64,000 nucleotides of DNA from Alphaproteobacteria bacterium (GCA_015062535.1 SUUK01000005.1:998-64997); one strand, 5' to 3'. Shown: positions 61,582 to 62,478, counted from the first letter of the stretch. Numbers and translations: made by a program. Notes: generated from the letters alone by a model not told the origin.

Positions 61582-62478
61582 TTATTTACAAAGTTTGGAT
61601 TGTTGCACCGAAAGCAAAAGAGATGATAGTTCTTTTTGAGCTGGAACTATGGTCATTTGCTTTGCGTTTGTTTTTAGTTCTTCTACTTGTGAAATGTATC
61701 TTGTTTCTCCACGATTTTGCATAGAGGAAATAACATTGTCTGCCCAGTTTTCGTACTGCTGTAATTTGGGACGACTCCAAACTTTTTCACGATGTTTTAA
61801 GATAGCCATAACAGAACCTACTCTGTTCTCACCTTCTTTTGGGGTAAGGTTTACATCTTTATCACGTCCATGGATTGTGATTTTGTTATAACAACCATCG
61901 TCTTCTATTTGTTGTAGTGTTTTTAGCATTTTGCCATAGGTTTCATCATGTGCCTCTGGTGGAGTATGACGAGGCATTTCACCATTTAGGAGAGCTTCTT
62001 CGTAACGGCTGTATGTTGAAAGTTTACTTTCATAAAAATTAACAGCCATTACATGGACATTTACTTCATACCCTTTGCTATGTAAGTCTTTTATTGTTTC
62101 ACATATTTGAGGGGTGCGCATTGTGCCTTCGAATATGATATTATTACGATTTTGTATGGCTAGAGCAAAAATACGTTGTGTCCAGTCTCTTACATCTAAA
62201 TCGGTGATGGTTGCCATTTCTTCTGGATGTTTGGTGTATATTTCTTTAATTTTTGGATGATATGCACGGTATTCATCTGCATTGATTATTAGGCAATCTT
62301 TACCCTCTTCGCTGTTTATTAGTTGATTTATGAAGGTGCTTTTACCTGCACCTGGTTGTCCTCCCATAATGAAAATTTTTGGTTTTTCTTGTGGTTTTGC
62401 ACCTTTGAATACATTTTTCATTATTTCTTTTAATATTTCTTCATGTTCTTCGTGGGATAATTTATATATTTCTTCCAT
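61582..62478 (-). CDS. zeta-toxin-family P-loop kinase (PF06414-like)
   Basis: Walker A IFIMGGQPGAGKST plus FEGTMRTP...KGYEVNVHVMAV...RYEE...HTPPEAHDETYGKMLKTL, matching the zeta toxin core. SD aaggaac. No epsilon-antitoxin ORF on either side. Confidence 0.7.
   Translation of the reverse strand: MEEIYKLSHEEHEEILKEIMKNVFKGAKPQEKPKIFIMGGQPGAGKSTFINQLINSEEGKDCLIINADEYRAYHPKIKEIYTKHPEEMATITDLDVRDWTQRIFALAIQNRNNIIFEGTMRTPQICETIKDLHSKGYEVNVHVMAVNFYESKLSTYSRYEEALLNGEMPRHTPPEAHDETYGKMLKTLQQIEDDGCYNKITIHGRDKDVNLTPKEGENRVGSVMAILKHREKVWSRPKLQQYENWADNVISSMQNRGETRYISQVEELKTNAKQMTIVPAQKELSSLLLSVQQSKLCK

Follow-up and report, generated by a model that had tools for sequence, protein, structure and literature searches.

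How can a bacterial cell live with an uninhibited zeta kinase, and what might such a kinase be useful for? Zeta toxins are lethal or bacteriostatic kinases of UDP-N-acetylglucosamine (UDP-GlcNAc or UNAG) and are thought to need a tightly bound antidote. The question is raised by a gene of the zeta/PezT family on the minus strand of a 64,000-nucleotide stretch of DNA from an Alphaproteobacteria bacterium (GCA_015062535.1, SUUK01000005.1:998-64997; hereafter the window), which the original prediction, made from the sequence alone, had described as a zeta toxin with no epsilon-type antitoxin beside it. The most likely reading of the locus, to which a probability of roughly 45% is attached, is that of a domesticated, solitary and still active zeta kinase which has persisted after the loss of its antitoxin. 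Candidate answers to how its activity is tolerated are low expression, attenuating changes on the protein surface, an unlinked antidote and reversal of the product by the PHP-domain phosphoesterase encoded next door. The locus offers a clean natural case, in that the cognate antidote family has been identified in relatives and is absent beside a toxin kept intact through species-level divergence.

By every sequence and structural criterion tested the kinase belongs to the zeta/PezT family. It falls outside the canonical systems, whether epsilon/zeta, PezAT or EzeT-type. The protein scores 157.3 bits (E = 4.3e-46) with the Pfam profile Zeta_toxin (PF06414), whose cut-off is 22.3, and the match covers residues 27-211 of the protein and positions 10-193 of the 199 in the profile. 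The generic AAA_33 model reaches 31 bits, far below this value. The PezT equivalog model NF041574 gives 103 bits where the cut-off is 470, and the protein is thus not a PezT orthologue. A phmmer search of PDB sequences returned only zeta (1gvn_B, E = 2e-23) and PezT (2p5t_B, E = 6.5e-23), the alignments beginning at residues 4-7 of the 298. The AlphaFold2 model (pLDDT 86, pTM 0.80) leads to the same proteins: the top Foldseek matches in the PDB are 1gvn_B, 3q8x_B and 2p5t (E = 1e-17 to 1e-13), with template modelling (TM) scores of 0.70-0.77 (query) and 0.82-0.88 (target) against the zeta and PezT structures, and values for 1gvn_B of E = 1.8e-17 and TM 0.76/0.83. AvrRxo1 and gonococcal zeta1 are far poorer matches. 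Profile score, PDB sequence matches and fold all agree with the family assignment first proposed, and the motifs on which it had been based (GGQPGAGKST, FEGTMRTP, KGYEVNVHVMAV and HTPPEAHDETYGKMLKTL) are all found in the 298-residue open reading frame (ORF).

Ten zeta residues from the ATP, catalytic and UDP-GlcNAc sites were checked in an alignment of the window kinase, 27 relatives and zeta (alignment A1), and nine are identical in the window kinase. The Walker A lysine is K46 in both proteins, within a Walker A motif at G40-T48, and the lid arginines that engage ATP, R158 and R171 in zeta, correspond to R158 and R170; the lysine and both arginines are invariant across all 28 relatives aligned. 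The catalytic base, D67 of zeta and D66 of PezT, is D68 and is likewise invariant in the alignment, whilst E116, the conserved acidic residue of the EGTxR stretch, is E117. Among the residues that hold the substrate, zeta T118 (the Thr of GTxR, which contacts the UDP beta-phosphate) is T119, R120 (UDP phosphate contact) is R121, T121 (near the bound UNAG) is T122 and T128 (uracil contact) is T128. The exception is E100, which contacts the ribose 2'-OH and is replaced by Q101, in a column that is variable across the family. The roles given for D67, E100, T118, R120, T121 and T128 are those described in PMC3062530. A check of the Walker A lysine, Asp67, Arg158 and Arg171 had been proposed, absence of the catalytic residues being named as grounds for refutation, and all four are kept. 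The gene appears to encode a genuine and catalytically competent zeta/PezT-type kinase.

To establish what is missing beside this gene, it is necessary to consider what stands beside its relatives. Some 125 related loci were compared overall, the sample having been widened with 80 metagenomic zeta loci, and genes cut by contig ends were ignored. Nearly all relatives have an abutting same-strand ORF of 63-190 residues, a downstream partner or an N-terminal fusion. In distant homologues (39-47% identity) a small ORF overlaps the start of the toxin gene by ~11 nt, and in a Clostridia metagenome-assembled genome (MAG) a small ORF lies just downstream. Outside the group to which the window gene belongs, only L046, L047 and L054 are without an abutting small ORF or fusion. 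The second of these is an Escherichia protein of 312 residues with an N-terminal extension and is presumably EzeT-like; the third is a marginal family match.

The small partner proteins are homologous to one another and share the motifs D-x-A-I-E-I-M/I-A and E-R-x-x-M-Y-x-G-D/N. They form an unannotated family of 65-100 residues encoded beside zeta-family genes, upstream with overlapping starts in Alphaproteobacteria and downstream in several Clostridia. In Shimazuella (L032), Paenactinomyces (L041) and one metagenomic contig (L060) the partner is fused to the N-terminus of the toxin. A profile hidden Markov model (HMM) of the family gave 40 matches in the fetched loci (E = 1e-30 to 1e-10), each abutting or fused to a zeta gene, and 375 clusters at E<=1e-3 were found in a collection of 5.8 billion proteins. 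The members listed are all unnamed or 'hypothetical protein', and none has a Pfam domain. The predicted structure consists of three helices (pLDDT 90), as in epsilon. Homology of the partner to epsilon or PezA was considered and rejected: Pfam gave nothing at E<=1 beyond chance matches, a PDB profile search gave unrelated proteins at best (E = 0.1), hhalign against epsilon gave E = 0.15 and Foldseek gave no epsilon match. The sole, non-significant hhalign alignment places the AIEI motif of the partner on the N-terminal EIEI helix of epsilon and serves as a lead only. On the predicted model, the partner is epsilon-like in size, position and architecture only. Many zeta genes that would count as orphans in database surveys are accounted for by this family. 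Separately, in the Clostridia MAGs L037-L042 (e.g. L037:4144-7768) the partner–zeta pair lies between cdsA and a gene for an M50 (RseP-like) protease, after uppS, and so inside a conserved cluster for cell-envelope biosynthesis.

Five species-level genomes carry the zeta gene with no partner. The window, which is 99% identical at the protein level to a contig of MAG RGIG4178 from roe deer colon (GCA_017465945.1), is grouped with L001/L012 (99% identity), and the others are L003 (80% identity), L013 (75%), L014 (61%) and L015 (58%). The partner was sought in the 64-kb window and in ~12 kb around each of the four other loci. The partner HMM was run on the ORFs of all fetched loci and then on their six-frame stop-to-stop translations, and the result was bimodal: apart from the 40 matches described above, no score was better than E = 1, and the window, L001/L012, L003, L013, L014 and L015 are all without a match. 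The earlier statement that no small same-strand antitoxin ORF adjoins the gene holds in this search, in which start codons are ignored. The only same-strand ORF of at least 30 residues touching either spacer is a 30-residue TTG ORF over the zeta start, and with it the sole candidate for a hidden antitoxin under alternative start codons; it was rejected, being of low complexity and broken by frame-shifting indels in the spacer alignment of the relatives. A downstream partner, as in the Clostridia relatives, was rejected because there is no ORF there and a terminator occupies the position. Neither an epsilon-type (PF08998) nor a PezA-type antitoxin (helix-turn-helix plus helical bundle) was found in the window. 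Nor does the kinase have an N-terminal cis-acting antitoxin domain, since the partner HMM misses the ORF and the match to zeta starts at residues 4-7. The 460-residue protein encoded downstream was rejected as a partner, being present in the window, L012 and L003 and absent from L013-L015. Assignment to a known defence system was also rejected, as PADLOC gives marginal P-loop matches only. A toxin–antitoxin (TA) module of type II has a small, adjacent, co-transcribed antitoxin gene, and the orphan locus is without one.

The partner-less sequences group as a single clade in 100 of 100 bootstraps of a neighbour-joining tree. This clade is nested among partnered lineages, its sisters being the partnered P0023/L004 (90 of 100 bootstraps). 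Since the partner-less sequences are monophyletic and so nested, the orphan state reflects a single secondary loss from a partnered ancestor. For the zeta gene, the ratio of nonsynonymous to synonymous substitution (dN/dS) is 0.05 when compared with the 99% relative and 0.15 with the 80% relative (dS 0.83), and deeper, saturated pairs give 0.07-0.13; the PHP neighbour gives similar values of 0.08-0.22. The gene is under purifying selection and is not decaying. Vertical inheritance as a monocistronic unit under purifying selection thus suggests a domesticated toxin and no decaying remnant. Six positions conserved in partnered relatives have changed specifically and uniformly in the clade (K27A, N61D, D/E105A, Y112N, R152K and S176A), none of them catalytic. 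They may be traces of an antitoxin interface no longer used, or changes that attenuate the kinase.

One further observation concerns an allele of the clade, P0021. The zeta genes of L139 (2437-3270), L140 (5001-5834) and L141 (2559-3392) stand at the same spot as that of L013 (5451-6353), to which they are 56% identical at the amino acid level, within a plsX-IHF-merR-84aa context that is 84% identical at the nucleotide level over 4.4 kb (plsX 97%, IHF 96%, MerR 91%). This allele is without the PHP neighbour and without the C-terminal helix described below, and reads EGIMRS for EGTMRT, with Ile at the Thr of GTxR. It represents either a replacement at a variable site or the rapid divergence of an inactivated copy. 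Replacement of the same Thr by Val renders PezT non-toxic (PMC3062530), so that this sole PHP-less allele of the clade may be inactivated.

The zeta gene is a stand-alone monocistronic unit, since it has its own ribosome-binding site, a terminator directly after its stop codon and a divergent PHP gene upstream (Table 1). The AAGGA/AGGA-like purine run before its start is kept in four of five relatives. The stem of the terminator is kept in L012 and L003, with an altered loop sequence. The upstream region, originally put at ~110 bp and said to hold a divergent promoter for the PHP gene, proves to be a spacer of 109 bp with a promoter in the PHP direction; this length assumes that PHP starts at the ATG at 62588 behind GGAGA, which is most likely, and not at the TTG at 62525. 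The PHP promoter coincides with a 27-nt block, ATTACATTnTTGATACAAAATGTTAAT, that is invariant in a spacer alignment of the five genomes (alignment A3). The promoter scan of this spacer found no consensus-grade sigma-70 promoter on the zeta strand, where only AT-rich -10-like hexamers are seen, of which TATAGT is the putative zeta element. The spacer also holds a repeat made of 2.1 copies of a 21-nt unit (consensus TTTGAATCAAGAAAGTAACAT), which overlaps the PHP promoter; only its second copy falls within the invariant block, and the repeat itself is not conserved in relatives. Downstream, the 236 bp before the next same-strand gene had been taken as the leader of that gene. A promoter and leader are indeed present there, but the first portion of the spacer is the intrinsic terminator of zeta itself. 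Beyond the PHP gene, the hairpin that separates it from the convergent infC probably ends PHP as well. No GC anomaly surrounds the zeta gene; an origin of the locus as foreign DNA or an island was rejected, the GC content being unremarkable.

Table 1. Positions of the zeta locus features in the window and of the related elements in other loci (a dot marks features given without strand)
Feature	Position	Strand	Remarks
Two tandem ABC transporter genes	55488..59654	-	~650 aa each, fused transmembrane and ATPase parts; directly downstream of 460-aa gene
460-aa protein gene	59963..61345	-	Downstream of zeta
Promoter TTGACA-17-TATGAT and ~140-nt leader of 460-aa gene	61346..61535	-	Candidate cis-regulatory leader
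Spacer to next same-strand gene, 236 bp	61346..61581		Zeta terminator, then promoter and leader of next gene
Intrinsic terminator of zeta gene	61537..61566	-	13-bp stem, loop, T-run; begins 16 nt past stop codon
Zeta/PezT-family kinase gene	61582..62478	-	ATG start, 298-aa ORF
30-aa TTG ORF	62462..62554	-	Rejected as antitoxin
Divergent zeta–PHP spacer, 109 bp	62479..62587	.	Assumes PHP start at ATG 62588 behind GGAGA
Shine-Dalgarno-like AAGGA	62487..62491	-	8 nt 5' of zeta ATG; read from sequence
Putative -10-like hexamer TATAGT for zeta	62504..62499	-	AT-rich -10-like hexamers only
21-nt unit repeated 2.1x	62524..62568		Overlaps PHP promoter
Invariant 27-nt block	about 62535..62565		Alignment A3
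PHP-direction promoter TTAACA-16-TAACAT	62538..62565	+	Promoter scan
PHP-domain phosphoesterase gene, TrpH/YciV-like	62588..63409	+	273 aa; divergent from zeta
Hairpin between convergent PHP and infC	63411..63437	.	Scored as - strand terminator for infC
Partner or fusion loci	L004:5730-6011, L007:5715-6011, L008:6908-7138, L032:5683-6801, L041:5701-6837, L060:1380-2594
Counterparts of 460-aa gene leader	L003:6948-7129, L003:10695-10854, L012:6957-7141

The history of the locus may then be reconstructed as follows. The starting point would have been a two-gene TA module, in which the gene for a small three-helix partner immediately preceded that of the toxin. One clade of animal-gut Alphaproteobacteria would have lost the partner gene in its common ancestor, a loss that may have coincided with the arrival of the toxin gene in a head-to-head position with a trpH-like PHP gene. 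From that time on, descent of the toxin gene would have been vertical, as a monocistronic unit with a weak-looking promoter, ribosome-binding site and terminator of its own. By analogy with zeta and PezT, the kinase is expected to bind ATP through K46, R158 and R170, to hold UDP-GlcNAc by means of T119, R121, T122 and T128, and to use D68 as the base in phosphorylating the 3'-OH of the GlcNAc moiety. The product, UNAG-3-phosphate (UNAG-3P), would inhibit MurA and thereby slow peptidoglycan synthesis. With no proteic inhibitor encoded alongside, the activity is presumably held at a sub-lethal level, either because expression is low or because the kinase is intrinsically attenuated; candidates for such attenuation are the substitutions specific to the clade at sites that partnered relatives conserve. 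It could then serve as a growth brake, a stress response or an abortive-infection response.

A number of points weigh against this reconstruction. The antitoxin search covered only 64 kb of the window genome and ~12 kb per other locus, and the zeta promoter is 'weak' solely in the sense that a consensus match is absent. The equivalent of E100 is Gln and several conserved non-catalytic positions differ, so that the substrate preference of the kinase could have shifted. Finally, the strict conservation of the PHP neighbour amid changing outer flanks hints at a partner after all.

The first of these points bears on the rival explanation that survives best, albeit as an unlikely one, namely that the antitoxin is an unlinked small protein encoded elsewhere on the chromosome, whether a relocated partner or the partner of a second partner–zeta module acting in trans. 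Every catalytic residue is kept and some restraint of the kinase is thus to be expected, only a fraction of each genome is visible, and the partner family is common in MAGs of gut Alphaproteobacteria, including another from roe-deer colon (L025). Nevertheless, neither the 64-kb window nor the flanks in the five genomes yield a match to the partner profile, and a pattern-based genome scan gave one zeta locus per partner-less species representative (n = 4) among the matches listed. When the best-scoring partner homologue at NCBI was looked up (P0039), it proved to belong to a different MAG and to lie directly upstream of a zeta gene of its own. The changes at the surface positions K27, D/E105, Y112 and R152 are also what would be expected of an interface no longer in use.

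Rather less probable is a coupling of the kinase to its PHP neighbour, in which the phosphoesterase would hydrolyse the 3'-phosphate that the kinase adds, whether on UNAG-3P or on a related 3'-phospho-nucleotide, acting as an enzymatic antidote or as one arm of a futile cycle. The more specific proposal, that an enzyme has taken the place of a binding antitoxin, PHP removing the toxic 3'-phosphate from UNAG-3P or a related nucleotide in a conserved kinase/phosphatase pair, is doubtful to a slightly greater degree. Were it true, the pair would represent a suicide module turned into a reversible regulator of cell-wall precursor supply. The attraction of the idea lies in the gene order. Zeta and a PHP gene encoding 272-273 aa stand head-to-head in five of five species-level partner-less genomes with a gap of 95-130 bp, and no neighbour other than PHP is shared by all of them, both outer flanks of the pair being different (infC/460-aa; merR-84aa/other; tolQ-like/YebC-like; accC/261-aa). 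Both genes also seem to be present on several other metagenomic contigs. An adjacency independent of the alphaproteobacterial clade occurs in L050 (5622-7680), a Clostridia MAG from rabbit, where genes for a partner (67 aa), a zeta protein (324 aa) and a PHP protein (297 aa) follow one another on one strand with a 0-nt gap. The only member of the clade without PHP, P0021 (L139-L141), is the one with Ile at the Thr of GTxR; its lack of PHP cuts both ways, as that zeta is possibly inactivated.

The PHP protein matches PF02811 with 53.5 bits, and the closest NCBIfam model, NF041577, is that of the 3',5'-nucleoside bisphosphate phosphatase, a 3'-phosphatase. The score of 143 bits is however below the cut-off of 400, as is that for RNase RNM (NF047791; 118 bits, cut-off 375), and since both equivalog models fall short the protein is best regarded as a family member of undefined specificity. 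No PHP enzyme is known to act on UNAG-3P. Orthologues of PHP that are 47-49% identical stand in sister lineages with no zeta nearby, and TrpH-like proteins are ubiquitous (3286 matches), so that PHP looks like a housekeeping gene beside which zeta landed once. Adjacency within one clade can moreover be plain inheritance, and there was no PHP neighbour at any of the 80 further metagenomic zeta loci. The notion that these PHP proteins form a zeta-specific subfamily was rejected in view of the zeta-free orthologues in sister lineages and the lack of PHP beside the metagenomic zeta genes.

An improbable alternative is that the kinase needs no antitoxin at all, having been repurposed as a metabolic kinase of shifted substrate or exported as a type IV secretion substrate that acts on other cells. 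A gene for a VirD4/TraG coupling protein lies ~5.5 kb from the solitary zeta in L001 (1-470) and L003 (1-442), past the right end of the window, and L004 (1-4218), the closest partnered relative, has virB4 and three tandem TrbC/VirB2-like genes adjoining its zeta locus. This linkage to type IV secretion genes is loose, and housekeeping genes (ligA, infC) intervene. The kinase has an extra C-terminal helix (residues 279-296, VPAKKELSxLLxxLQQSK), which is conserved in the partner-less clade and its sisters only and might be regarded as an export feature; it is however common to relatives with an antitoxin. The zeta-fold effector AvrRxo1 provides a precedent (PMC4938570, PMC5087710), and the Gln at the E100 position and several clade-specific substitutions would suit a changed specificity. 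Against this, the UNAG-contacting residues T119, R121, T122 and T128, together with D68, are of the zeta/PezT type and not that of AvrRxo1 (TM about 0.55).

An RNA antitoxin of type I or of a type III-like kind, whether encoded in the spacers on either side or running antisense to zeta, is highly improbable, and the suggestion of an 'antitoxin that is not a protein' found no support in Rfam, tandem-array or synonymous-constraint searches: the strikingly conserved non-coding stretch in the 236-bp downstream spacer, which might have suggested one, travels with the 460-aa gene and is absent from L013-L015 despite their solitary zeta, Rfam gave none at E<=0.1 and three weak matches (E = 0.11-0.37) that cover the terminator hairpin only, the fold z-score is -1.1, there is neither a ToxI-like tandem array nor a local excess of synonymous conservation within the gene, and the upstream 21-nt repeat, despite its 2.1 copies, is not shared by relatives.

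A solitary, domesticated zeta kinase remains the preferred explanation, and it may be set against the systems already known. With zeta of the pSM19035 omega–epsilon–zeta operon and PezT of Streptococcus pneumoniae PezAT, the window kinase shares the Pfam family, fold and key residues, and a similar length including the helical C-terminal region, to which it adds its extra amphipathic helix. It is ~23% identical to them, and differs in having Gln at the equivalent of E100. Its gene has no upstream epsilon or PezA gene and no omega, and is monocistronic with its own terminator; it lies on the chromosome in Gram-negative gut Alphaproteobacteria and is passed on vertically. EzeT of Escherichia coli, a zeta toxin whose N-terminal antitoxin domain acts in cis, is likewise a single-gene zeta system on a Gram-negative chromosome. 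The window kinase is without the N-terminal extension, whilst its relatives in L032, L041 and L060 show an analogous partner–toxin fusion. AvrRxo1, the NAD 3'-kinase effector which is paired with the antitoxin-like chaperone Arc1, exemplifies the use of a zeta-like fold outside the classical TA role. It is distant from the window kinase (11-14% identity, TM about 0.55), whose substrate-binding residues are those of zeta and PezT and whose locus has no type III secretion context.

Orphan genes of this family have been recorded previously. Surveying RefSeq, Moreno-Cordoba et al. (2023) found PezA or epsilon beside only 476 (286 + 190) of 3086 pezT/zeta homologues and report orphan pezT/zeta genes (PMC10532202). 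The literature also describes reversible stasis at physiological zeta levels alongside such orphans (PMC10532202; PMC4179160, PMC3266247). The novelty of the present locus is thus moderate. Like the survey orphans (PMC10532202), the window gene encodes a zeta-family toxin with no recognisable PezA or epsilon neighbour. Those orphans are mostly defined by the lack of a Pfam-recognisable antitoxin, whereas for the window gene the cognate partner family has been identified and is absent beside the gene; furthermore, the loss can be placed at one node, and purifying selection has kept the toxin. What is new, therefore, is an orphan state traced to a true, derived loss, a gene retained under selection, a constant PHP neighbour and a description of the missing partner family.

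Searches of Pfam, NCBIfam, PADLOC and PHROGs assigned the 460-residue protein encoded downstream of zeta to no family. The stretch made up of the promoter and leader of its gene is more conserved than the surrounding coding DNA, at 94% in L012 and 83-86% before both paralogues of the gene in L003, and is a candidate cis-regulatory leader; no Rfam match was found for it, and its minimum free energy z-score is -1.1. The protein itself is unusually variable, being 77% identical in the otherwise nearly identical genome L012, where zeta is 99% and PHP 98% identical. Two ABC transporter genes follow it in the window, and in L003 its two paralogues (75% and 53% identical) flank an ABC transporter gene. 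By eye, a helical '...VIAKEYGFDSWNDL' motif is seen at the N-terminus of the protein, and the C-terminal half bears a faint resemblance to subtilases.

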